A DNA stretch of 20,571 nucleotides from a virus (Duplodnaviria > Heunggongvirae > Uroviricota > Caudoviricetes). The stretch is taken from IMG/VR virus record IMGVR_UViG_3300010365_001539, positions 64,076 through 84,646 of that record; one strand, 5' to 3'. Below are positions 3,952-19,218 of this stretch, one piece after another. The stretch's first letter is position 1; the number at the start of each line of letters is the position of its first letter. A model generated the notes under the pieces. The model saw nothing but the letters and a program-made list of their open reading frames with translations, was not told where the DNA came from and ran no database searches. A program made the position numbers and the translations under genes.

Positions 3952-4590
3952 GTGGAAGAGTGGACTCCGTTATTGATTATTAAAAAAATAAGTAGGGTAT
4001 TTATCACTATCAATTCTTTTTCTAATTGTTCTATGTGCTAAAGATAATGCAATAGTAGCCTTCTTTATACTACTGTATTCCACACCATCTATAGTACAAC
4101 CAAATCCTAGTGTTTTACTTATATTGTCTTTCCAATCTTCTGTTAGAATTACTTTCTTTCTAGCATCTGATAATTTTTTTCTTTCTTCTTCTGACCATAC
4201 TTTACCATAACAAGGATTATTTTTACCTTTATTTAATAATCTTAATTTGTCAATAGTTTCTTTAGTATGTTTACCATCTTCACCACCATCTGTACTATTG
4301 GTTAAATTAGTAAATTGTGTGATCCAGTATTTCTCCCTTTCAGACCAATTTAATTCATTACACTCTTCTATTAGTTCTATTATAGGTAGTTTATTAGAAG
4401 TTTTTAATTTTTTAATCCATTTAACCTTATGACTATTATCTTTCAAATCAGTTACATGTTCTCTATGTCTATGTTTTAATTCTCTACCTGTCTTTCCTAT
4501 GTATCTTACTTCTTTTGTATCTGGGTCTAAAAGACCATATATTCTTATTATATCCATATACTATATATAAAATAGAGTCCACTCTCCTAC
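3952..4590. mobile_element. Endonuclease cassette bounded by 16-bp imperfect inverted repeats
   Basis: GTGGAAGAGTGGACTC (3952-3967) and GAGTCCACTCTCCTAC (4575-4590) are complementary at 14 of 16 positions, with the inner 11 bp perfect. They enclose only the gene and its upstream motif. Confidence 0.6.
3970..4557 (-). CDS. GIY-YIG homing endonuclease with NUMOD3-like DNA-binding repeats
   Basis: RIYG...RYIGKT motif, R...H, E (REKYWI), N (LTNSTDGGE), then KHTKETIDKL and KVWSEEERKKLS repeats and a C-terminal helix-turn-helix-like EYSSIKKAT segment. Confidence 0.88.
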   Translation of the reverse strand: MDIIRIYGLLDPDTKEVRYIGKTGRELKHRHREHVTDLKDNSHKVKWIKKLKTSNKLPIIELIEECNELNWSEREKYWITQFTNLTNSTDGGEDGKHTKETIDKLRLLNKGKNNPCYGKVWSEEERKKLSDARKKVILTEDWKDNISKTLGFGCTIDGVEYSSIKKATIALSLAHRTIRKRIDSDKYPTYFFNNQ

Positions 4591-8545: not shown

Positions 8546-8625
8546 AGGGTTTATATGTTTGGGTGGGGTAAAAGTTTTGGTTGATTTAGGATTGTGGTGG
8601 GACCAACTGGGTGGGTCAGGAACTT

Positions 8626-8672
8626 TTGCCTTCGGCAAGTAGTTTTCAGGGTCTCACGTGCTAACGCACGTG
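8626..8672. other. Two GC-rich hairpins at a divergent gene junction
   Basis: TTGCC-TTC-GGCAA (8626-8638) and CACGTGC-TAAC-GCACGTG (8655-8672). Confidence 0.7.
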
Positions 8673-8682
8673 TGTGGTGTTT

Positions 8683-8713
8683 TTTGATGTATATGAGAAT
8701 AATTTTATTTTTG
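8683..8713 (+). promoter_or_regulatory. Bacteroidota primary-sigma promoter upstream of the paralogue array
   Basis: TTTG 8683-8686, 19-nt spacer, TATTTTTG 8706-8713. The T-rich context makes a chance match possible. Confidence 0.6.
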
Positions 8714-8724
8714 TGAATAGATTT

Positions 8725-8733
8725 TTATATATA
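8725..8733 (+). promoter_or_regulatory. T(A/T)ATATATA motif, putative phage late promoter
   Basis: TTATATATA 4 nt before ATG 8738. The same motif sits 4-5 nt before five other starts. Confidence 0.6.
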
Positions 8734-8737
8734 GATA

Positions 8738-9214
8738 ATGAGAATTAAAATGTATGAGAACTTTACAGAGAATATCAATGATATTGTTAAGAGAAGGGTT
8801 TCTTTTATCAAGAAGTTTAGATCTGGTGTTGAGGATATATTTGTGGAGTTGTTGGATAATCATTTTTTGGTTGATGTTAATGTTACAAATAACAATAATA
8901 GTTACAATGGTTATTTCAAGTGTTGTGTTGTAATACAATTATCTAAGTTTTCTAAGAAGGATATTTTCAGGTTTGAAGATATTAGAGATTCATTAATTAT
9001 GTTTGAGGATTATGCCCAAGAGTGTGGTATTGTTCCTTTAATTGATGGTACTGGAAAAGGTTTTGAAATAGAGATGGCTTATCATGAGGAAAATAGAGAA
9101 TATGGATTTAGTCATGTTGTTAGTAGTTTTGATACTTTTGGTGGTGATATGGATTGGTTGGAATCAGCGGATATGAATCGTTTAAAAATTGAGGTTTATG
9201 TAAAACATGATTAA
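8738..9214 (+). CDS. Array paralogue 1 (leader + DIFVELxD domain)
   Basis: MRIKMYENFTE; VEDIFVELLD; SLIMFEDY. Confidence 0.85.
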   Translation: MRIKMYENFTENINDIVKRRVSFIKKFRSGVEDIFVELLDNHFLVDVNVTNNNNSYNGYFKCCVVIQLSKFSKKDIFRFEDIRDSLIMFEDYAQECGIVPLIDGTGKGFEIEMAYHEENREYGFSHVVSSFDTFGGDMDWLESADMNRLKIEVYVKHD

Positions 9215-9602
9215 TATAAAGTTATTTGAGGATTTTACTGATAAGTCAGATAAGGTGGAAAAGATAAGACAGGATTTAGAGGATATTTTTGTTGAGTTGA
9301 GGGATGTTAAGTATTCAGTAAAGGTTAATGCTTTACAGTATGATATTACACCTAATACACATTATGAGGTTATATTGGTTAGGAATTCAGGAATAGATTT
9401 TTCAGAGCTTGAAGAGTATGTAATGATGTTTAAGGATTACTTGAATGATTATGAGTATCACAATATGAAATGGCATTCATGGTCTTTAGGACATTCTAAG
9501 TATAGGATAGATAATGAGTTTGATGAGATAGAGAAGAATCGTGTTGAAGAGTTTTTCATAAGTAATGCAATAGGTATAAAAATTAGTTTCTTTGTGGTAT
9601 GA
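9207..9602 (+). CDS. Array paralogue 2
   Basis: MINIKLFEDF; LEDIFVELRD; EYVMMFKDY. Confidence 0.85.
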   Translation: MINIKLFEDFTDKSDKVEKIRQDLEDIFVELRDVKYSVKVNALQYDITPNTHYEVILVRNSGIDFSELEEYVMMFKDYLNDYEYHNMKWHSWSLGHSKYRIDNEFDEIEKNRVEEFFISNAIGIKISFFVV

Positions 9603-10396
9603 GGATAAAAGGATATAATGAGTTTATTACAGAGGAAAAATCAGTTGATAAGTTTGGTATAACACCAGAGTTGGAGTCAGATGTAAAGGATATCTTTGTA
9701 GAGTTAAGGGATGAGGGTATTGAGGTTGATACACAGCGTTGGGACTCACAATCAGATATGATTTGTGTTACACTTTCACCAATAGATGTGGAGGGAGATA
9801 GGCATTGTTTTAAAGTAGGATCTGTTAAAGAGTATGTGATGATGTTGATTGATTATATGAAGTTAAAGTATGATGTTAAGAAAGTGAGTTATGATGTTTG
9901 TTTAGGGGATTTTAGTACTAATTGGGGTGATACTGTAAATCGTTCATTTAGTGAGTTTCCAGATAAATATGCTGAATTAGATACAGATGAGTTTGGAATA
10001 AACTTTGAGGTGCCAGATTATGAGATTAATGAGGGTTTTGGTGGTTTTGTTGGACCAGAGTATGATAAGATAGAATCTGATGTTAATGATATGTTTATTG
10101 ATTTAAAAGATAATGGTGCAAAGATTGATATTTATTTTTATCATAAGGGAGCTGGATATGGTGCAGGTGCAGAGGATTATATGATAAAGGTAAAGATTTA
10201 TTCAGATAGAAAGTTTAGTATGACTGAGGTTGAAGAGCCAACAAGGATGATGGTTGATTATTTTCAGGATTTGACAGATAAGAAGGTTGATATGGAGTAT
10301 AATATGTCAAGTGATTATACTAATACAAGACAGAGGGAGTTTAACCCATACTCTTTTGATAATGGGGTAACAATATATTTAATAGAAAGAGGATGA
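9599..10396 (+). CDS. Array paralogue 3 (two tandem domains)
   Basis: MRIKGYNEFITE; VKDIFVELRDEG; linker EINEGF; VNDMFIDLKDNG. Confidence 0.85.
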   Translation: MRIKGYNEFITEEKSVDKFGITPELESDVKDIFVELRDEGIEVDTQRWDSQSDMICVTLSPIDVEGDRHCFKVGSVKEYVMMLIDYMKLKYDVKKVSYDVCLGDFSTNWGDTVNRSFSEFPDKYAELDTDEFGINFEVPDYEINEGFGGFVGPEYDKIESDVNDMFIDLKDNGAKIDIYFYHKGAGYGAGAEDYMIKVKIYSDRKFSMTEVEEPTRMMVDYFQDLTDKKVDMEYNMSSDYTNTRQREFNPYSFDNGVTIYLIERG

Positions 10397-11292
10397 GATA
10401 TTTAAAGAAATTTAATGAGGGTTTTGATGAGATATTAACAAATCTTACAGATGGGAATTTTGATTCTTGGATTAGGATTGAAGACAATGTGAAGGATATT
10501 TTTGTAGAGTATTCTGATTCACATGATTTGGATGTGGTTGTTGGTAGAGGTCATTTACCAATGACTATGGCTAAATTAGATGAGAAAGTAATTGAGGTAA
10601 AGTTATTTGAGCAGAGGGGAATTAGGTATGGGGATATAGCTGATGAAGTTGGTATGTTAATAGAGTATATGAAGTCATTGACTGATAAAGAGGTTGAGAT
10701 TTATTATGATTTAGATAGAAGTGGATTGAGACATTGGAGACCATTGGCTGGTAATAGTGAGTATGAGCATGATTATAATTTGGATAGTAATAAGGTTAGG
10801 TCATTTAATACAATAAGAATATACTTTGTGGAGAGTGTTGGTAAAGTTACTGAGAGTTTCATTACAAATACTAACTATAAGGATAAGATTGTTGAGGACA
10901 TAACAGATATGTTTATTGAGTTAAAGGATGCTGGTTTGAATTGTTTAGTTTCAATGCAGGATAATAGTACAGTAGATATTGCTATTTATAAGAAGAAAAA
11001 AGGTGTGGTATTTGATTTAGATTTGGTGAGGGATTGTGTAGAAATGGCTAAGCATTATTTATCTGATTTAGGTGATGTAACAGAGTTTTATAGATTTGGT
11101 TATGTAAGTGAGAGAGTTACTGCTAGAATGACAAATGCTGGTACTATTTATGATAAAAAACAAAGTAGAGATAATATAGAGTATTCAAGTTTCCCAGATA
11201 ATTGGAATGAAGATGTAGAGAATAAACATGCTTTAGAACACAGATTTGATTATGAGTTAGAGGGTATAAAAATAGTATTTAAACAAAAATGA
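10393..11292 (+). CDS. Array paralogue 4 (two tandem domains)
   Basis: MRYLKKFNEGF; VKDIFVEYSD; linker VTESF; ITDMFIELKDAG. Confidence 0.85.
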   Translation: MRYLKKFNEGFDEILTNLTDGNFDSWIRIEDNVKDIFVEYSDSHDLDVVVGRGHLPMTMAKLDEKVIEVKLFEQRGIRYGDIADEVGMLIEYMKSLTDKEVEIYYDLDRSGLRHWRPLAGNSEYEHDYNLDSNKVRSFNTIRIYFVESVGKVTESFITNTNYKDKIVEDITDMFIELKDAGLNCLVSMQDNSTVDIAIYKKKKGVVFDLDLVRDCVEMAKHYLSDLGDVTEFYRFGYVSERVTARMTNAGTIYDKKQSRDNIEYSSFPDNWNEDVENKHALEHRFDYELEGIKIVFKQK

Positions 11293-11669
11293 GAATAAAA
11301 TTATTTGAGCAATTTTATAAGGCTACTGTGTTAGATCAGGTTAATGATTGTTTAGTGGATTTAAGAGATAAAGGATTTGAGTGGAGTTGTTCATATGAAC
11401 AATTACATTATTCTGTTTTAGATATGTCATTAAAGAAGATTGATAGAAGTAGTTTTGTTATTGATGATATTAAGGATTCAATAGAAACTATGATAGAGTA
11501 TTTTGATGAGAAGTATGGTGTTAAGTCATATTCTATAACTAAACCAGATAGTCCAGGTCCTGGAATAGAGGTTAAATTGTATGATGAGGATGATGATTCA
11601 GTGATAGCAAGACATGGTAGGTTAAAGAAGTTGAATTGGTTAAATATAAAAATCAATTTAGGTAAATGA
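11289..11669 (+). CDS. Array paralogue 5
   Basis: MRIKLFEQF; VNDCLVDLRDKG; DSIETMIEY. Confidence 0.85.
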   Translation: MRIKLFEQFYKATVLDQVNDCLVDLRDKGFEWSCSYEQLHYSVLDMSLKKIDRSSFVIDDIKDSIETMIEYFDEKYGVKSYSITKPDSPGPGIEVKLYDEDDDSVIARHGRLKKLNWLNIKINLGK

Positions 11670-12019
11670 GAATAAAGTTATTTGAAAGTTTTAGTGATGA
11701 GAATAAGATTAAGTCAGATATTAAGGATATCTTTGTAGAGTTGATTGATTCAGGATTTGATTTGAATGTTATTACTTACTTTACAAAGCATCAATATTAT
11801 GTGAATATACAGAGAATTGATAAGCAATTATTTGATGTTGATATTATAAAAGAGTATGATTTAATGTTAAGAGATTACTTACAAGATGTTCTACCAATTT
11901 TTAAGATTGAGTATTTACTTTATTCAGATAATGGTGAATATGCAACAGAGTATGAAATAGGAAGTGGTTATGTACCAAGGTTAGTAATAAAAGTTATAGG
12001 ACAAGATGAGAATAGTTAA
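11666..12019 (+). CDS. Array paralogue 6
   Basis: MRIKLFESF; IKDIFVELIDSG; EYDLMLRDY. Confidence 0.85.
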   Translation: MRIKLFESFSDENKIKSDIKDIFVELIDSGFDLNVITYFTKHQYYVNIQRIDKQLFDVDIIKEYDLMLRDYLQDVLPIFKIEYLLYSDNGEYATEYEIGSGYVPRLVIKVIGQDENS

Positions 12020-12391
12020 TTATAGTAATTTTATAAATGAGGCAGTGAATCATGATGCTTTAATGGCAATTATGAAATTGATATAGAAAAAATAGGACTT
12101 CAAGTATTATCATTTGAGAGTTCAGAGTTTTTATTTAGATATGAAGAAGTTTCTGAATATTTAAAAACAATTAATGAGTATATCAATCATATTGAATATT
12201 CTAACCCTCATACAGGATGTTATGTTATTTTTCAAAAAAGAGATACTATGTCTAAAAAAGTTGAGTGTACTTGGGATAGATTTATTTTTCTTGAAGAGAA
12301 ATATGTAAACAGAGATGTTATTAATAAGAGAAATTCTGATGTGAATAAATTTACTTATATAAAACTAATATTTAGAAAAAGTAAAAGATGA
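12006..12391 (+). pseudogene. Array paralogue 7, frame-disrupted and lacking the signature helix
   Basis: MRIVNYSNFINEA frame stops at TAG 12084-12086. A second frame opens near 12056 (FNGNYEIDIEK...EYLKTINEY...IKLIFRKSKR) and ends at TGA 12389-12391, overlapping the next ATG. Confidence 0.7.
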
Positions 12392-12834
12392 AGTTTATAA
12401 AATTATTTGAGTTTTTTGATTATGAGAATCATATTTCTAAATCTATAAGAGATATACTTATTGAGTTAGAAGATGAGGGTATGCAAGTTAAGATTGAATA
12501 TCAACCTGAGAGTTTTAAGTATGATAGACCTAAATATGCTTTAGAGGAACCAAAGAAAACTATTATACAACCAGGTGTTAAAATTGAAATTACTGGTAAA
12601 CCGCTTCCAGAAGACCAAACTGCGAGTTATCCTGAGCTTTATAAAGAGTTTGAAGTTAGTTCAATAAGAGATTACATTGATACAGTTGTTGATTTTATTG
12701 AAGATATTTGGCCAAGTTATGATTTATACTTTGAGAAGTATGATACAGATGATTCACATATTCAAGATGGTGAAGTATTGAAGGATGGTGTGTGTGGTTC
12801 AATAATAATACAAATACATAAAAAAGAGATATAA
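12388..12834 (+). CDS. Array paralogue 8
   Basis: MKFIKLFEFF; IRDILIELEDEG; DYIDTVVDF. Confidence 0.85.
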   Translation: MKFIKLFEFFDYENHISKSIRDILIELEDEGMQVKIEYQPESFKYDRPKYALEEPKKTIIQPGVKIEITGKPLPEDQTASYPELYKEFEVSSIRDYIDTVVDFIEDIWPSYDLYFEKYDTDDSHIQDGEVLKDGVCGSIIIQIHKKEI

Positions 12835-12839
12835 AGAAG

Positions 12840-13678
12840 ATGAAGTATATAAAATTATTTGAAAATTTTAATGATAGCTTCCCTTTTTCTATCAGACAGG
12901 ATATTAAAGATATATATTTGTTGAGTTAATTGATGAGGGATTTAATGTTAGATTTAGACCAACTCTTATAAGGAATTTTTTAAGAGCAGTTAATGAAGTT
13001 GATTTTAGTATTATTTTAGAAAGAGAGAGAGATGACACATATGACTTTCAAATTAGTGAAGTTTATGAATACATTATGATGTTGATTGACTTTGTGGAAT
13101 CTGTTGGTATTAATAGTAAAGTTTGTTTTAAGGCATCAACAAGAAATAAGAGAGGTTCAAACTATATTAAGAAGATGACTTTAACACAATTAGAAAAGTT
13201 TGCAGAGGAAAGTAAACCAATTAATTTTATAGAAATAGTATTTGAGAATACTATTAATGAAAGTTATGATAGTGATGGTAAGTTTACCATTGATGACAAG
13301 TTCAAGAAAGATATTAAAGATATGTTTGTTGAATTAGAAGATGATGATTGGTTAGTTGATATAGATTATTTAGATAAGGGTAAAGGAATACAAGACATTA
13401 TGGTTATGATAAACAATGATGAGAATGATAAGTTATTCAATTCAAATATGGTTAAAGATTACTTCTTAATGTTATTAGATTATACTAAAGATTATTATGA
13501 TGTATTAACACATAAGTTTGCTGTTTATAAGAGGATACAAAATTATGATGCTGTGACTGGAGTAAGAAGAGGTTATGGACCATTTCAAACAGATACAAAA
13601 TACTATGATGAATTTCCAGATAATCTTGATGGTCTTGAATGTATGGGAATAGATATAATAATGAGAAGTGAAAGATGA
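12840..13678 (+). pseudogene. Array paralogue 9 (two domains), frameshifted by an extra TA
   Basis: MKYIKLFENF...DIKDI, then GATATATATTTGTTGAG (12909-12925). Removing one TA gives DIFVELIDEG, open into the 13076..13678 ORF (linker TINESY; IKDMFVELEDD). Confidence 0.8.
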
Positions 13679-14082
13679 AGTATATAAAATTATTTGAGAG
13701 TTTTGATATAAGAGAAGAAAATACAAAAAGTGATATTTATGGAATTTTTGTAGAACTTGTTGACTTGGGATATGAAATAGAAGTTGATATTGATAGAAGT
13801 GTAACTGGTGATCAAATATATGTTGAAATCTCTAAGGATTATTTTGGTGACAATTTAGAAAAAATAGGTGAATATACAGAAATGTTAGAGGATTATTTAA
13901 AAGAATATTTGAACAATTATGAAGTTATTTATAGAGCAGGATATAAGTTTAGTTATTCAAGTACTGATAATTTGGATTATAGATATATGGGTAATACTTA
14001 TAATGAGTTTATGAAGAGAATGTATGAAAATAATTTCTCAAAATCATTAAAATCAATAAGAATATTAGTATTGGAACAATGA
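13675..14082 (+). CDS. Array paralogue 10
   Basis: MKYIKLFESF; IYGIFVELVDLG; EYTEMLEDY. Confidence 0.85.
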   Translation: MKYIKLFESFDIREENTKSDIYGIFVELVDLGYEIEVDIDRSVTGDQIYVEISKDYFGDNLEKIGEYTEMLEDYLKEYLNNYEVIYRAGYKFSYSSTDNLDYRYMGNTYNEFMKRMYENNFSKSLKSIRILVLEQ

Positions 14083-14483
14083 AGTATATAAAAGTATTTG
14101 AGAAGTTTGACCAGTATGACTTTTGGAACTATGGTTCTATGAGTAAGATTAAGCAAGATATTGCTGATATGTTCATTGAATTAACTGATGAAGGTTATGA
14201 GGTTGATGTTAAAATGATTGGTACTTTACAAGTCTATATTGAGGGAAAGAATGATTGGTTCTTCTTTGATGAGATATATGATACTGTATTAATGTTGATT
14301 GATTATGTTGAGAGTGAGTTTGAAGATGTTAAGATTAGTTATGATTATGAAGAGTATAATGATCCTAAGAGAACAATAACTGGTAGTAGAGAATACAAAC
14401 AAAAAGTAATGCAGAAAGAAGACAAACATGTTCTTTTTAGTCATTTTACTATAGAGTTTGCAACAGGAAATAAAAAGTTATAA
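14079..14483 (+). CDS. Array paralogue 11
   Basis: MKYIKVFEKF; IADMFIELTDEG; DTVLMLIDY. Confidence 0.85.
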   Translation: MKYIKVFEKFDQYDFWNYGSMSKIKQDIADMFIELTDEGYEVDVKMIGTLQVYIEGKNDWFFFDEIYDTVLMLIDYVESEFEDVKISYDYEEYNDPKRTITGSREYKQKVMQKEDKHVLFSHFTIEFATGNKKL

Positions 14484-14484
14484 G

Positions 14485-14682
14485 ATGAGATATATAAAAC
14501 TATTTGAAGGATTTGATGAGAATGATTGGAACAATGTTAGTAATAACATTGATGATATGTTATCTGCTGAGTTAAGAGATGTTGGACTTTTATATTCTAT
14601 TAATTATAGAAAACAAGAAAAGAGTTTGATGTCAAAGAGCGTTTTCAAAAATCCAGCCTACAAAATATCCTATAATGATTGA
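14485..14682 (+). pseudogene. Array paralogue 12, truncated at about 14636
   Basis: MRYIKLFEGF; IDDMLSAELRDVG. Only about 50 codons before running into the antisense of the convergent gene. The second helix is missing. Confidence 0.7.
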
Positions 14683-14843: not shown

Positions 14844-15293
14844 CTAATGAATTGGATTAATAAATATTGTTTTTTCTTTATATAAATAACTTGGTAATTC
14901 CTTTTTAATTGTGCCTTTCAGAGCATGACGAATGATATTAAGAAACGTGAAACGAGTTAATAGGTAACGTTCAAAAATCAATATCCAATCATAGTTTAGG
15001 CATATCATTATATCTATAAATTCTCGGTCGATTTTGTAACCTACATAACCCATTGAATTACGCCAATCGTGAATGAAAGCTGCAACTTCAAAAATAGTTT
15101 CGTTGGTGCGCTCTTTTACAAATGTGGCACCGTCATAACTAAATTTTTCGCTTTCAAAATCGGCTTTCGCTAACATTAAAATCATTCTAATAGGATGTTT
15201 TAAATCTAAATGCCGAAGTTCTGAATCCATATAGCTATATCCTTCCGATAGTTCGGAATAGGTGAATTGGCTGTGTGTTTTGTTTTTTGTCAT
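14844..15293 (-). CDS. Hypothetical protein with AAFIHDW motif (DUF1353-like)
   Basis: YDGATFV...AAFIHDW recalls the AAxxHD motif of DUF1353 phage tail-region proteins. Confidence 0.55.
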   Translation of the reverse strand: MTKNKTHSQFTYSELSEGYSYMDSELRHLDLKHPIRMILMLAKADFESEKFSYDGATFVKERTNETIFEVAAFIHDWRNSMGYVGYKIDREFIDIMICLNYDWILIFERYLLTRFTFLNIIRHALKGTIKKELPSYLYKEKTIFINPIH

Positions 15294-15679
15294 TAGAGAT
15301 TAGAAGCGTTTATGAATATGTTATCTAATTCTATTTCTGTTTTATTAAAAGCCAATCCGATTACTGATATGAAAGGATTGTTTCTTTCAAACACATTTGC
15401 TTTTCTAAGTGAAATTTTTGCCAATTCTCCACTAACAGATGGTAATTGTTCATTAGCTACAAGATAATCTATTGTTTCACGAATTGCAGTTTCAGTAATT
15501 CCTTCTAACAATAATTGTGAAAAGAATTGCAAAGCGGTAATCTCTTCTGGAACAATTACTAATTCTGTATATTCTTCAAAGTCTGTTTCTATGTAATTTA
15601 CACCATCTGGAATTGACGATAAATCTAATGTATCAATTTGCTGATTATCTACTGTATATGTATATTTTTTTATGCTCAT
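15293..15679 (-). CDS. Putative tail-fibre assembly chaperone
   Basis: Immediately follows the tail-fibre gene. Pattern ITALQF...ANVFERNNPFI...ELDNIFINASNL resembles phage fibre chaperones. Confidence 0.55.
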   Translation of the reverse strand: MSIKKYTYTVDNQQIDTLDLSSIPDGVNYIETDFEEYTELVIVPEEITALQFFSQLLLEGITETAIRETIDYLVANEQLPSVSGELAKISLRKANVFERNNPFISVIGLAFNKTEIELDNIFINASNL

Positions 15680-15681
15680 AA

Positions 15682-17901
15682 TTATTGTGATTGAAATTGC
15701 ATTTTATCGGCTTCATAAGTTCTTGCTGATGTACCATTTGTTTTTGAAATTGAGTGATTTAATGATACAGGAATGTTAGGTACATTTGTAGTATGCGTAG
15801 CAACTAAAACATTATCAATGTAAAACATAACAGTGTTTGTACCAGTTATAAAGTATATTAATAATTCATACCATTGGTCAGCAACTACTATAACGCCCGT
15901 ATCAGTAAACGTTCTACTAGATGATAATGAAGTAACTGTTTTAAATTTTATGCTACCTGGTGAAGCACCAGAAGCAAATGAACCTTCAGTGTCATATAAA
16001 AAAAGAATTGAAGCTGATGGATTAACTCTATTACCATTGCCTATGAAACCATCTTGAATATAAAATGCTTCTGATGTGGTAGATAAAATAGGAATTTTAA
16101 CCCTTCTCTTCATATAAAACGAACTGTCAGACAAATTAATTGGTGGTGTATTTACATTACCAAACACAATAGCTCCCAATCCAAAAGAAGTTACTGTTCC
16201 TGTTGATAAAACTAAACCTCCAAATTTTGCTCCAGTAACATTTGAGCCACTTGTTGCACTACCACCACTACCACTTGCACTTGTATATGGAGCAGTAAAT
16301 GAAGCTCCTATATAATGTTCCATTATATAAACACCTTCATTCCAATCAAATTCTTTTCTTAGATTGTTGTTTATCAATTTTGAATTAATTGTACTTATTG
16401 AGTTTCCAATATTTTCAAACTCTGTCTTAAGTGCTGCTTGAGTAACACCACCATCAGTATTACTAGTTAAAATATTATTATATAGTTTAGCTAATCCTTT
16501 TGTGATAATGGATGCGTCAGGAATAGCAGCTAATGCTCTAGCAGATGTAAAGTATAAATTAGTAGTACCTTCAGGTAATGCATCGGTTGTGGTTAGAGAT
16601 ACCGAACCGCTTAAAACCCATCCTTCGTCGGCATCCCAAATATACATTTTAGCATCGCTGCCAGAACCTGCGTCAACTAAAGCATAATCGCCTAAATTAG
16701 CTGTTGAATGTGCTGTTTGAAGTGCAGAAATAGAAGTATATGTACCTTTGTAATGTTCGTTTATTGCTGTAATATCTGCCAAAGTTGCTAAAGGAGATGA
16801 TGGTCCGCTTGGTAAATGATAAATAATGCCATTTCTTGTCAGGCTATCTCTATTTAACACTAAAAAAGGCGTACTTGCGTCTGTAATTACTAAACCTCTA
16901 CCATTATCAAAACCTATAAAGTCGGATTGTTGGTTTGTGTCAAAAACTGAAACCCCACCATTGCCATCCAAAATCAATGAATTATATGAATCATAAGTAC
17001 CAAAAAAAGTAGTAAAGGAATTTATCCTAAAATTATCTAGATTATACTCTATATAATTATCATCGTCTATCTTTTGTATGAAATTTTTAGTGGTTACATT
17101 TCCCTCTGTTAATACTTCTTCAAACGTTGGAGTACCGCCACCGCCTGAAATATCTGCTAATGTTGCCAACGGCGAACTTACTCCTGTTGGTATAAGATAC
17201 TCGCCGTTTTCTGTGGTTATCTTTTCTTTTAAAAATGCACTTTCATTACCTGTCGTATCTACAACATAAAACCCTAAATCATCACGGTATGTTAAATTTT
17301 CATCATCAAGATTTGTAATTTCCACGTTTCCTCCACTAAATGCTAAACGCTTGTTTCCTCCAATAATGAAAACTTCAACATCATTGGCAACGTTACCGTT
17401 ATCTAAAACACTTTGCAAATCAACTACAACTGATGGAGTAGTTTGTCCGTTTACAGAAGTGATGCCACCCGCTTCAATTTCTAATGTAACCTTTCCGCCA
17501 CCGTCATCCGTTACCGTTGCTCCAATGACTTCTATTTCGTTTATATCAACTATCGGTGTTTCTCCGCTTTCGTAGATTGTTAAGGATGAACCGGTTGGTC
17601 CAGTTGGTCCAGTAACACCTTGAATACCAGTTGCACCAGTAACACCAATAGTTCCTAATCCAAATTCAATTAAGTCTGTTGGTCCTACACCATCTCTATA
17701 CCAAAACTTTTTTGACTCACCACCAACTATAAGTCTGACTTCCATTGATTGAAATCTAGTTTCAACTGGAATAGTTAAGTTGGCTAAATCTATAGCATCT
17801 TGTAATGATACACCATCATATGGACCAGACCATGAATCAACTGGGACTGGGTTAACTGGTTGAATACCAAATGGTAATTGTAATCCTTGTGTTATTGACA
17901 T
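15682..17901 (-). CDS. Chimeric tail-fibre / receptor-binding protein
   Basis: N-terminal PVPVDSWSGPY domain, collagen-like G-x-T repeats, two LQ/FExVLxxGN...SSPLATLADI modules, TTDALPEGTTNLYFT fibre motif, and a C-terminal lectin-like beta-sandwich (FYIDNVLVATHTTN). Confidence 0.75.
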   Translation of the reverse strand: MSITQGLQLPFGIQPVNPVPVDSWSGPYDGVSLQDAIDLANLTIPVETRFQSMEVRLIVGGESKKFWYRDGVGPTDLIEFGLGTIGVTGATGIQGVTGPTGPTGSSLTIYESGETPIVDINEIEVIGATVTDDGGGKVTLEIEAGGITSVNGQTTPSVVVDLQSVLDNGNVANDVEVFIIGGNKRLAFSGGNVEITNLDDENLTYRDDLGFYVVDTTGNESAFLKEKITTENGEYLIPTGVSSPLATLADISGGGGTPTFEEVLTEGNVTTKNFIQKIDDDNYIEYNLDNFRINSFTTFFGTYDSYNSLILDGNGGVSVFDTNQQSDFIGFDNGRGLVITDASTPFLVLNRDSLTRNGIIYHLPSGPSSPLATLADITAINEHYKGTYTSISALQTAHSTANLGDYALVDAGSGSDAKMYIWDADEGWVLSGSVSLTTTDALPEGTTNLYFTSARALAAIPDASIITKGLAKLYNNILTSNTDGGVTQAALKTEFENIGNSISTINSKLINNNLRKEFDWNEGVYIMEHYIGASFTAPYTSASGSGGSATSGSNVTGAKFGGLVLSTGTVTSFGLGAIVFGNVNTPPINLSDSSFYMKRRVKIPILSTTSEAFYIQDGFIGNGNRVNPSASILFLYDTEGSFASGASPGSIKFKTVTSLSSSRTFTDTGVIVVADQWYELLIYFITGTNTVMFYIDNVLVATHTTNVPNIPVSLNHSISKTNGTSARTYEADKMQFQSQ

Positions 17902-17916
17902 TTTTATCTATTTATT

Positions 17917-19218
17917 TTATATTCTTGTTACTTGATGTCTATGATTAGAAGTATATGCAATTGCATTTGTCATTGTATATACATCATATGATACATTTGT
18001 TCCAATAAAATCCAATACACCAAATGTATTTTTTATGTATGAATCTGTTATGTTTGCACTCAAAGCATCAATATCCAAAACTTCTGACAATTCTAATGTA
18101 GATGGTATTGCAACAACAAAATTATTATATACTGACCCAGTATTCAATGTAAATGGATTTGAACCATCTGTAAATATTCTATTTGTGAATAATCTTACAT
18201 CTCCACTTGTTGTTGGTATTGAACTTGTTGGTCCATAAAATATAATATTCAATAAGTTTACTAAACTTGTAGAACTTGTAGTAGTTTGATAAGAATCAGT
18301 AACTTGAACTCTATAACCAATTGAAGTTGCATCAGATAAGTTGATAGTATCATTATGATTTGTTGTTGATATTGCAGCAGTTGCACCACTTATACTTACA
18401 GTAGAACCTATTGGTAACCAAGATCCTGAACCATTTTTTTGATATTGTAATTGATAGTAACTTAATCCAACATTTGTGGAATTTCTTGTTATTAATCCAC
18501 TTAGATTAGATGATATATTACCTTTTTCTCTTTTTGAATTTGTTTCAATAAATGATGTGGTTGCTGCAATAACATTAAAACTAATACTTGGTGCTATATA
18601 TGAACTTGGTGTTATATCTTTTATTGTAAAATTAGTAGCTCCTTGACTATCTGTTACAGTATATTTATAATTAAAAGGCTCTGTTGCAAATGCACCATCA
18701 GTTAATGAATGTATAAATGTAAATAAATTTATATCTGTTGATAAAGTTGTCCAAGAACCTGTGTTATTTCTTCTCCATTCTAATAAAACAGATACTGCAG
18801 TTGCTCCTAAACTATTAATAGAATAAGTGTAAGTTAATAAGTTTGATATTGCAGTTTGGTTAAATACAATAGTACTTAAACTATTTAATGATATAGTTGG
18901 TATAATAGGTTCAGTAAGTGAATCAATTATTACCTCAACTGCAGTTTTACCATATGCAGGTATTAAATCACCATTAGTATATTTACCAAAAGATTTACCA
19001 GATGTTAAACTAACTAATATATCGGATGGGAAAGTTTCTAAAACTCCTGATGCAGTTGGTGCAACCCCAATTCTTGATATAACACCTTGGTCATTCTTTT
19101 GACTTAAAAATCCTGTTGCACTATCATATGCAACCAAATGACTACCTGTTGATGGTGTTGCTGCTAATACCAGATCTGTTGAACTTCCAAATATTAAATT
19201 ACTACTATTATTACTCAT
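17917..19218 (-). CDS. Ser/Thr-rich virion structural protein with Ig/FN3-like beta domains
   Basis: 433 aa, S/T/N rich, YKYTVTDSQG and YRVQVTDSY strand motifs. Upstream of the fibre gene. TAATATATA 4 nt before ATG. Confidence 0.65.
   Translation of the reverse strand: MSNNSSNLIFGSSTDLVLAATPSTGSHLVAYDSATGFLSQKNDQGVISRIGVAPTASGVLETFPSDILVSLTSGKSFGKYTNGDLIPAYGKTAVEVIIDSLTEPIIPTISLNSLSTIVFNQTAISNLLTYTYSINSLGATAVSVLLEWRRNNTGSWTTLSTDINLFTFIHSLTDGAFATEPFNYKYTVTDSQGATNFTIKDITPSSYIAPSISFNVIAATTSFIETNSKREKGNISSNLSGLITRNSTNVGLSYYQLQYQKNGSGSWLPIGSTVSISGATAAISTTNHNDTINLSDATSIGYRVQVTDSYQTTTSSTSLVNLLNIIFYGPTSSIPTTSGDVRLFTNRIFTDGSNPFTLNTGSVYNNFVVAIPSTLELSEVLDIDALSANITDSYIKNTFGVLDFIGTNVSYDVYTMTNAIAYTSNHRHQVTRI

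Follow-up and report, generated by a model that had tools for sequence, protein, structure and literature searches.

A twelve-gene array of acidic, leader-bearing paralogues as candidate capsid cargo of an uncultured giant phage

Why would a phage carry twelve consecutive genes for diverged members of one protein family, each beginning with the same kind of short leader? The question is raised by an array at positions 8738-14682 of the stretch of DNA analyzed here (the window), which is the final 20.6 kb of a linear 84.6-kb IMG/VR phage contig that is itself a fragment (record IMGVR_UViG_3300010365_001539). All twelve genes lie on the + strand, and every one bears an N-terminal leader of 10-20 residues ending in hydrophobic-x-Glu, of the MKTYQEFIAE or MKTFKEF type. 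The reading that we favor, with a probability of roughly 0.55 and on evidence that hangs together but is circumstantial, is that the array is a late operon of a giant phage with a T4-type head, and that its products, comprising at least 14 acidic alpha/beta domains and each carrying a T4-type capsid targeting sequence (CTS) as a propeptide, are capsid cargo. An earlier note, made from the sequence alone, had described twelve consecutive + strand genes with such leaders, mostly joined by ATGA overlaps, and had proposed that they form a library of injected effectors. The layout was borne out, all 12 leaders being present as quoted: ATGA is found at all 12 starts, and the junctions consist of six 4-nt ATGA overlaps, two longer overlaps (8 and 14 nt) and three gaps.

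The domain family of the array

Paralogy within the array is statistically secure, well beyond chance. When the 117-aa gene 6 protein was compared by phmmer with a six-frame translation of the contig, the other members were recovered with E values of 2e-11 to 2e-4, and an iterated hidden Markov model (HMM) gave per-domain E values of 1e-13 to 1e-30. The HMM identifies 14 domain copies in the array, and not the 15 counted before: 13 are full-length, the truncated one is that of the 65-aa gene 12, and genes 3, 4 and 9 have two each. Five further family members are located elsewhere on the 84.6-kb contig. In a profile search of 1.84 billion cluster representatives, 2,368 relatives were found at E <= 1e-3, 224 of them at E <= 1e-10; the number of domains in each protein ranges from one to five. 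An AlphaFold2 model of the gene 6 protein, built from a 19-sequence alignment (predicted local distance difference test score, pLDDT, 82.9), has the form of a two-layer alpha/beta sandwich in the order helix-strand-strand-helix-strand-strand.

A conservation profile was drawn up from 238 domains belonging to the best 150 of the 2,368 database relatives. The best-conserved positions of the leader are K4, E7 and F9; those of helix 1 are D21, L/F23, E25, L26 (91%), D28 (99%), G30 and F31, those of helix 2 are F56, I61, D/E63 (91% acidic), Y71 and L72, and Y83 is conserved elsewhere. Strands and loops had been thought almost unalignable. In the profile the strands can be aligned, since alternating hydrophobic core positions are kept, and only the outward positions and the loops are free to change. 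The proposal of one scaffold with a variable face agrees with this, in that the sheet face and the loops do vary, a pattern common to any old family.

The domain had not been recognized as a named family, and neither the HMM and Pfam searches nor the structure comparisons matched it to a characterized enzyme or structural family. For ten array proteins no Pfam family scored above its gathering threshold, and neither did pfam12699, the family of phiKZ-like inner-body proteins. When folds were compared with the PDB, BFVD, AFDB clusters, a wide PDB set and the Atlas, nothing came up beyond generic two-layer sandwiches and clusters of the family itself, which are viral and unnamed. Its neighbors in the ESM Atlas, by features as well as by shape, likewise consist of unnamed clusters, 100% viral. 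The array proteins have isoelectric points (pI) of 4.3-5.3. The domain represents a new, acidic, viral-only family. Sub-threshold Pfam matches, for example to PAZ, AFG1 and GapR, were dismissed as chance matches. An array of immunity proteins or antitoxins was also considered and set aside, as the family is exclusively viral, the leader is on every copy and there is no toxin partner nearby.

The members are far apart from each other but close to counterparts in other phages. The closest paralogue of any array domain is only 26-43% identical, whereas 13 of the 14 array domains have a database representative at 59-97% identity among the best 150 relatives; a separate search gave gene 10 orthologues at 64-87% identity. 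Over six orthologue pairs the ratio of nonsynonymous to synonymous substitution rates (dN/dS) ranges from 0.20 to 0.60. Taken together, the orthologues and these ratios indicate that the array members are individually maintained lines under purifying though somewhat relaxed selection, rather than rapidly diversifying cassettes. The description of the array as hypervariable is therefore apt for the distances between paralogues but not for the tempo, which looks like that of an old divergence. No evidence was obtained for diversification against host defenses, each paralogue being individually conserved at these dN/dS values, and a library diversified in this way is a doubtful and so far unsupported idea.

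What does change between phages is the composition of the array. Related arrays (L008, L093-L095 and L007) vary in content, with one inserted gene separating close relatives, and copy number varies as well, with 15 and 23 per genome in relatives and arrays of 8-10 genes. Fusion also differs among phages, some of them joining domains that others encode as separate genes: the second domain of gene 4 stands alone with its own leader in L008 (L008_4270) and P0014, and one relative has a five-domain fusion of 703 aa.

Leaders, linkers and the head genes of relatives

The leaders resemble those of T4 internal proteins. As read from AF158101, T4 IPII and IPIII start with MKTYQEFIAE and IPI with MKTFKEFTS...ITE. 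The leader core of gene 3, YNEFITE, recurs unchanged as the leader core of a protein annotated as an internal head protein in Erwinia phage Vettismorki (Tevenvirinae), and PHROG 2667, 'internal head protein', matches residues 4-66 of gene 3 with an E value of 1.1e-5. The PHROG 2667 profile itself reaches T4 IPII and IPIII only over its first 14 positions, that is, over the leader. The likeness to T4-type capsid targeting that had been suggested thus gains support from both the identity and the profile match.

Leaders are not confined to the array family. A scripted pattern finds them on 22 of the 172 open reading frames (ORFs) of the contig, and a few more were recognized by eye, unrelated proteins included: the leader is a modular element. 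One such protein is a NUDIX hydrolase (Pfam E 3.5e-10; G000:C1 36966-37496, L003:17969-18496 on the - strand) with the leader MIWLKLFEAF, which could be considered an enzyme candidate for head cargo. Codons within the leaders vary synonymously (AAA/AAG, GAA/GAG, TTA/CTA, AGA/AGG), which indicates that the leader is conserved as protein. Leader flavors are genome-specific (MRIKLFE in the window, MRVVKLYE in L008 and MRKIKSFKLFE in L093), and the bodies behind them are highly diverged. This would fit co-evolution with a genome-specific receptor, but gene conversion would produce the same picture. The pattern alone does not define the group, because it is present in exact form in a 508-kb record (G002) that has neither a family match nor an S77 match.

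A part of the leader recurs inside the multi-domain members. In the two-domain AlphaFold2 model of gene 3, pLDDT drops below 50 in the leader (residues 1-19), ahead of the first well-folded domain, and in the linker between the two domains (residues 141-153, with YEINEGFGG), and both are predicted to be disordered. Among the best 150 relatives, hydrophobic-x-Glu-small occurs in 40 of 66 internal domains, at a median of 16 residues ahead of the helix-1 anchor; 67 of 108 N-terminal leaders have it in the same register, compared with 4-10% in equally long control windows. From composition, about 12 occurrences of the tripeptide NES would be expected, and 69 were counted. Many fusions keep the whole internal leader, Met included. 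In T4, gp21 cuts after Glu in (L/I)-x-Glu, and the leader sequences of the internal proteins end in IAE and ITE. Since the leader part is kept in a disordered linker, where a translation start is irrelevant, the linker motif is best explained as a retained protease site, and if it is one the multi-domain members would be polyproteins. A 242-aa protein of G004, a 242-kb IMG/VR record (L069:15142-15870), combines a leader-tagged Cys-rich domain with a complete second internal leader, LESMKYLRTFNES, and a family domain; here two tagged genes belonging to different families have been fused.

Head genes come into view in relatives of the window's phage. G004 was reached through the exact leader pattern and has 15 family copies, 13 of which start at the leader positions of the profile. 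It encodes a portal protein (phrog_213, E 9e-58) and a 713-aa protein of which the N-terminal 340 residues match the head maturation protease (phrog_207, E 1.6e-30, with a weak S77 match), here fused to a scaffold; a Gp23-family capsid protein (81.5 bits) is encoded immediately downstream. In LR745206.1, an uncultured phage genome of 634,780 bp with 23 family copies, the protease-scaffold is 84% identical to that of G004 and the Gp23 match reaches 88.7 bits. A third record, G007, has a T4-type protease (phrog_207, E 4.5e-52) and shares the 433-aa gene adjoining the array (49% identity); no family copies were found on the G007 fragment. The expectation of T4-like head genes and a prohead protease thus holds for G004 and LR745206.1, which have the same family.

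The scaffold of G004 provides a possible link between leader and head. Repeats of the type NIAYSEYIAENLDK fill the C-terminal half of the protease-scaffold, and their YSEYIAE units resemble the leader. Within G004, seven proteins have the heptad [YF]x[EN][FY][ILV]xE at the N-terminus, the scaffold repeats contain it ten times, and the other ~72,000 residues have a single copy. The capsid protein has YAEFHSINE in its N-terminal region, and the protease-scaffold contains several x-N-E-S sites. This distribution suggests that a leader may act as a single scaffold repeat co-assembling with the core. A complex prediction of a leader-bearing N-terminus with two copies of the G004 scaffold repeat region gave a score of 0.00 and weighs neither way.

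A promoter-like motif, WATATATA, may connect the array with the head genes. The contig has 52 sites, fewer than the ~94 in shuffles, and 27 ORFs have it on the same strand within 45 nt upstream of the start, mostly at 4-5 or ~20 nt. It is enriched ahead of leader genes, preceding 9 of 22 of those defined by the scripted pattern (at 4-6 nt from the ATG) as against 18 of 150 other ORFs, or 11 of 24 as against 16 of 148 when two leader genes recognized by eye are added. G004 has it ahead of its portal, protease-scaffold and capsid genes. As a motif match, this is consistent with a late promoter common to the array and the head genes. The motif also precedes a hydrolase tagged for type IX secretion, at 1027, and a homing endonuclease at 3970-4557. 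Nearly leaderless transcripts would result if it were a -10-type late promoter.

Capsid cargo weighed against other explanations

We infer from these comparisons that the array proteins are packaged, cleaved and ejected. The disordered propeptide of 10-20 residues, resembling a scaffold repeat, would co-assemble with the scaffolding core, so that the protein enters the prohead. A T4-type (S77/phrog_207) prohead protease would then remove the leader by cutting after Glu in hydrophobic-x-Glu-small, and the same protease could split fusions of two to five domains at the motif kept in their linkers. The mature domains of ~100-130 residues would stay in the head with the DNA and would probably exit with it at infection. 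As to their function, we lean tentatively towards a set of distinct modules that bind host targets, because the paralogues differ from one another in the outward sheet face and the loops and yet are each conserved individually. A more elaborate version, which we regard as rather unlikely as a whole, is that giant phages with T4-type heads load a battery of distinct, individually conserved acidic binding modules (at least 14 from one operon), some of them as polyproteins cut by the protease at leader-derived sites, the leader being a copy of a scaffold repeat, and that these modules enter the cell together with the DNA, ready to inhibit host factors or to act as decoys for them, perhaps in a DNA-mimic-like anti-restriction role.

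A number of observations weigh against capsid cargo with T4-type leaders. Beyond the leader there is no homology of the mature parts: hhalign of the 19-member family alignment with T4 IPI, IPII and IPIII gave E values of 0.29-0.78 and probabilities below 1%, the match of the family profile to the Vettismorki protein (E 0.08) is not significant, and PHROG 2667 had no match in the other nine of ten array proteins tested. The T4 internal proteins are basic and DNA-binding (pI 8.9-9.5), as opposed to the pI of 4.3-5.3 in the array. The strict motif is lacking in about 38% of leaders and linkers, and 21% of domains have Lys in place of the Glu. In the single-domain model of gene 6, helix 1 runs into the leader end (pLDDT 43), and for this reason the leader-end motif could be partly structural. 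A PF03420 search of the window's 84.6-kb contig gave no match, and no protease or capsid gene is present on it, although in a fragment this is uninformative. G004 shares only nine of the contig's 172 ORFs at E < 1e-5; it and the other relatives are moderately distant, and it is from them that we infer a T4-type head in the window's phage. A cultured relative was not found, as tblastn of three family proteins against phage records gave nothing below E 0.9 (E limits 1e-3, 10 and 0.01).

It could also be that the proteins are packaged and processed but are not effectors, and instead form bulk internal or 'inner-body-like' material that organizes, spaces or charge-balances a large genome, with the paralogues providing dosage and structural diversity. 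We consider this unlikely. Loss of its own internal proteins is tolerated by T4, and acidic filler next to DNA would be electrostatically unfavorable; distinct orthologous lines at 59-97% identity would moreover be needless in such material when the paralogues differ to the extent of being 26-43% identical. Still, the most conserved residues are the acidic ones of helices 1 and 2 (D21, E25, D28 at 99% and D/E63 at 91%), suggesting a common partner or ion, and both purifying selection and the different copy numbers among relatives (15 and 23 per genome, arrays of 8-10 genes) are in keeping with bulk material. There is also precedent in the 20-member family of head-protein paralogues of SPN3US and in the paralogous inner-body proteins of phiKZ-like phages (PMC5694885).

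Equally improbable in our judgment is that the proteins remain unpackaged, as late or other cytoplasmic proteins (decoys, DNA mimics or inhibitors) whose shared N-terminus serves stability, localization, an efficient translation start on near-leaderless mRNAs, or the swapping of cassettes as a recombination handle. With a promoter-like motif only 4-5 nt ahead of the ATG, the first codons might be constrained by translation initiation, but the synonymous variation of the leader codons places the conservation at the protein level, and the end of the leader is kept inside fusions, where neither translation start nor promoter proximity matters. Genome-specific leader flavors are also expected from gene conversion, and the extension of helix 1 into the leader in the single-domain model would suit a cytoplasmic protein. 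Known DNA mimics are acidic, as are the array proteins. On the other hand, apart from the leaders, the heptad in G004 is restricted to the repeats of the scaffold and the capsid N-terminus, and an annotated internal head protein of the Tevenvirinae has the very leader core of one array gene.

That the array is decaying junk, functionless duplicates drifting to pseudogenes, is very improbable, for although two of the twelve window genes are frame-broken and the last is truncated, one of the breaks is absent from three other metagenomes, dN/dS is 0.2-0.6, every intact member has orthologues at 59-97% identity, the fold is confidently predicted and there are 2,368 cluster representatives at E <= 1e-3, so that selection and conservation data largely refute it.

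Genes, surroundings and known head-internal proteins

The positions of the array genes and of related features are collected in Table 1.

Table 1. Features of the array and of the protease-scaffold genes of relatives (positions refer to the window unless another record is named)
Feature	Position	Strand	Evidence or remark
Promoter-like motif TTATATATA	8725-8733	+	4 nt ahead of the array's first ATG
Gene 1, 158 aa, leader MRIKMYENFTE and one domain	8738-9214	+	Orthologue P0022, 74% identity
Gene 2, 131 aa, leader MINIKLFEDF and one domain	9207-9602	+	HMM
Gene 3, 265 aa, leader MRIKGYNEFITE and two domains	9599-10396	+	HMM, AlphaFold2, PHROG 2667 match
Gene 3 inter-domain linker motif YEINEGF, residues 141-147, candidate internal protease site	10019-10039	+	Predicted disordered; leader register
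Gene 4, 299 aa, leader MRYLKKFNEGF and two domains; linker KVTESF at 10843-10860	10393-11292	+	HMM
Gene 5, 126 aa, leader MRIKLFEQF, one domain	11289-11669	+	Orthologue on L007, 90% identity, dN/dS 0.20
Gene 6, 117 aa, leader MRIKLFESF, one domain	11666-12019	+	Member chosen for folding, AlphaFold2 pLDDT 82.9
Gene 7 remnant, leader MRIVNYSNFINE in a 26-codon ORF, other frame open to 12391	12006-12391	+	No family domain detected
Gene 8, 148 aa, one domain, long insertion between strands	12388-12834	+	HMM
Gene 9, two domains, frame broken in the window by 2 extra bases near 12910	12840-13678	+	HMM, contigs of other runs
Gene 10, 135 aa, one domain	13675-14082	+	Orthologues, 64-87% identity
Gene 11, 134 aa, one domain	14079-14483	+	HMM, orthologue comparison
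Gene 12, 65 aa, leader and truncated domain; 3' end overlaps convergent - strand gene	14485-14682	+	HMM
Protease-scaffold fusion, >10 14-residue repeats NIAYSEYIAENLDK, then very acidic Asp/Glu/Asn-rich tract	L070:6213-8351 (G004); LR745206.1 198546-200666		

Two genes of the array are interrupted. Gene 7 consists of a leader plus ~19 residues, after which the frame changes and no domain is recognizable. A soil-metagenome run, X3, matches window positions 12033-12282 in this region without indels; X3 also has a contig that departs from the window after 12062 and runs in frame into a family-like helix. These two haplotypes, which come from short, low-depth contigs only, hint at cassette turnover at the population level. 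Recombination may have left gene 7 behind as a scar, and the population may be polymorphic for the array. In gene 9 the frame is broken by a 2-nt (AT) insertion in an (AT) run, which is absent from the otherwise identical contigs of three independent runs (X1, X2 and X3). Once the two extra bases are removed, a 278-aa open frame with two domains is obtained, and the break would appear to be either strain-specific slippage or an assembly error.

Upstream of the array, the divergent intergenic region holds a GC-rich island (8556-8692) with two hairpins, one at about 8620-8636 and one with 7-bp stems at 8655-8661/8666-8672, followed by a T run. Rfam and tRNA scans around this region gave no match. 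Its folding on the + strand does not improve on that of shuffles (z -1.2), and on the - strand the gain is only mild (z -2.45). On the other side, the convergent - strand genes at 14844-19218 (149, 128, 739 and 433 aa) look structural, with a weak match to a minor tail protein; the promoter-like motif stands in front of the 433-aa gene (17917-19218), the one that is 49% identical in protein sequence to its copy in G007.

GC content is 26-35%. A GIY-YIG homing endonuclease, together with a protein that has a sorting domain for type IX secretion, points to a phage infecting Bacteroidota. Many studies of activated sludge, wastewater and soil have yielded metagenomes with nearly identical DNA, and public runs containing this stretch, X1-X5 among them, come from activated sludge, wastewater, anaerobic digester and soil metagenomes. 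A megablast search of GenBank phages with the whole window gave no DNA-level match, and a locus search with one family protein led to a single locus. CheckV completeness looks unreliable for the G004 and G001 records. The 242-kb G004 record scores 89%, yet a genome of 635 kb has a protease-scaffold 84% identical to the one in G004; the window's own contig, of 85 kb, scores 40%.

In what respects, then, does the array resemble systems that are already understood? Like the leaders of T4 IPI, IPII and IPIII (and of Alt), those of the array are short, of the form Y/F-x-E/N-F-I-x-E or K-x-F-x-E-F, and end in hydrophobic-x-Glu; as in T4, they are found on otherwise unrelated proteins, and the array's relatives have the module of portal, protease, scaffold and Gp23 capsid genes. 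The T4 leader is removed by the gp21 prohead protease; for the array proteins, packaging and cleavage are predictions from sequence. Unlike in the T4 internal proteins, the mature parts are acidic and not basic, and they are non-homologous to them; there are 12 genes in one operon and more elsewhere, as compared with three or four scattered genes in T4; fusions keep a cleavage-like motif in their linkers; and in relatives the protease is fused to a scaffold of leader-like repeats. That internal proteins of T-even phages are highly diverse, with only the CTS conserved, had been cited in support of the idea and agrees with the literature (PMC3012670). The 99-aa Vettismorki protein of PHROG 2667 shares with gene 3 not only YNEFITE but also a following helix, a Gly and a V-x-V-D-V strand in the same register; unlike the array proteins it is basic (pI 9.2).

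Giant phages offer a second parallel. SPN3US and phiKZ have a large set of paralogous, non-enzymatic head-internal proteins, with member numbers that vary between related phages, as in the array; their gp21-related protease cuts after Glu, and diverged paralogues have conserved N-termini (PMC5694885). Paralog family B of SPN3US has 20 members, including gp138-154 (PMC5694885). The view of the locus as a much larger analogue of the T4 ip locus is right as to the reality of a twelve-gene array, but a large family of head-internal paralogues has a precedent in this family B (PMC5694885). The array has no sequence or Pfam relationship to these proteins, and its leaders are of T4 length, whereas the processed head proteins of SPN3US and phiKZ mostly have propeptides of more than 100 residues. 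By analogy, the array seems to combine the T-even CTS theme with the giant-phage paralogue theme in a megaphage with a T4-type head. It would differ from the known models in four ways: the acidic viral-only domain is new, twelve genes form the operon, fusions resembling polyproteins retain the sites, and the repeats that build the scaffold are leader-like.

Conserved CTSs on diverse cargo and families of head-protein paralogues in giant phages are both already established, and in the literature no paper was found that connects capsid targeting sequences with huge phages or megaphages. The anti-defense idea is attractive, though as yet without support. Should the leader prove to be a capsid address, one could read the head cargo, or packaged proteome, of uncultured giant phages from sequence alone, and a viral-only, unnamed family with thousands of clusters would be one of the main components of that cargo. 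Internal proteins made in polyprotein style and cut by the head protease, with a leader copying the scaffold repeat, would extend the T4 model of cargo recruitment, and the leaders might serve as natural tags, short enough to be convenient, with which to load large capsids with foreign proteins.

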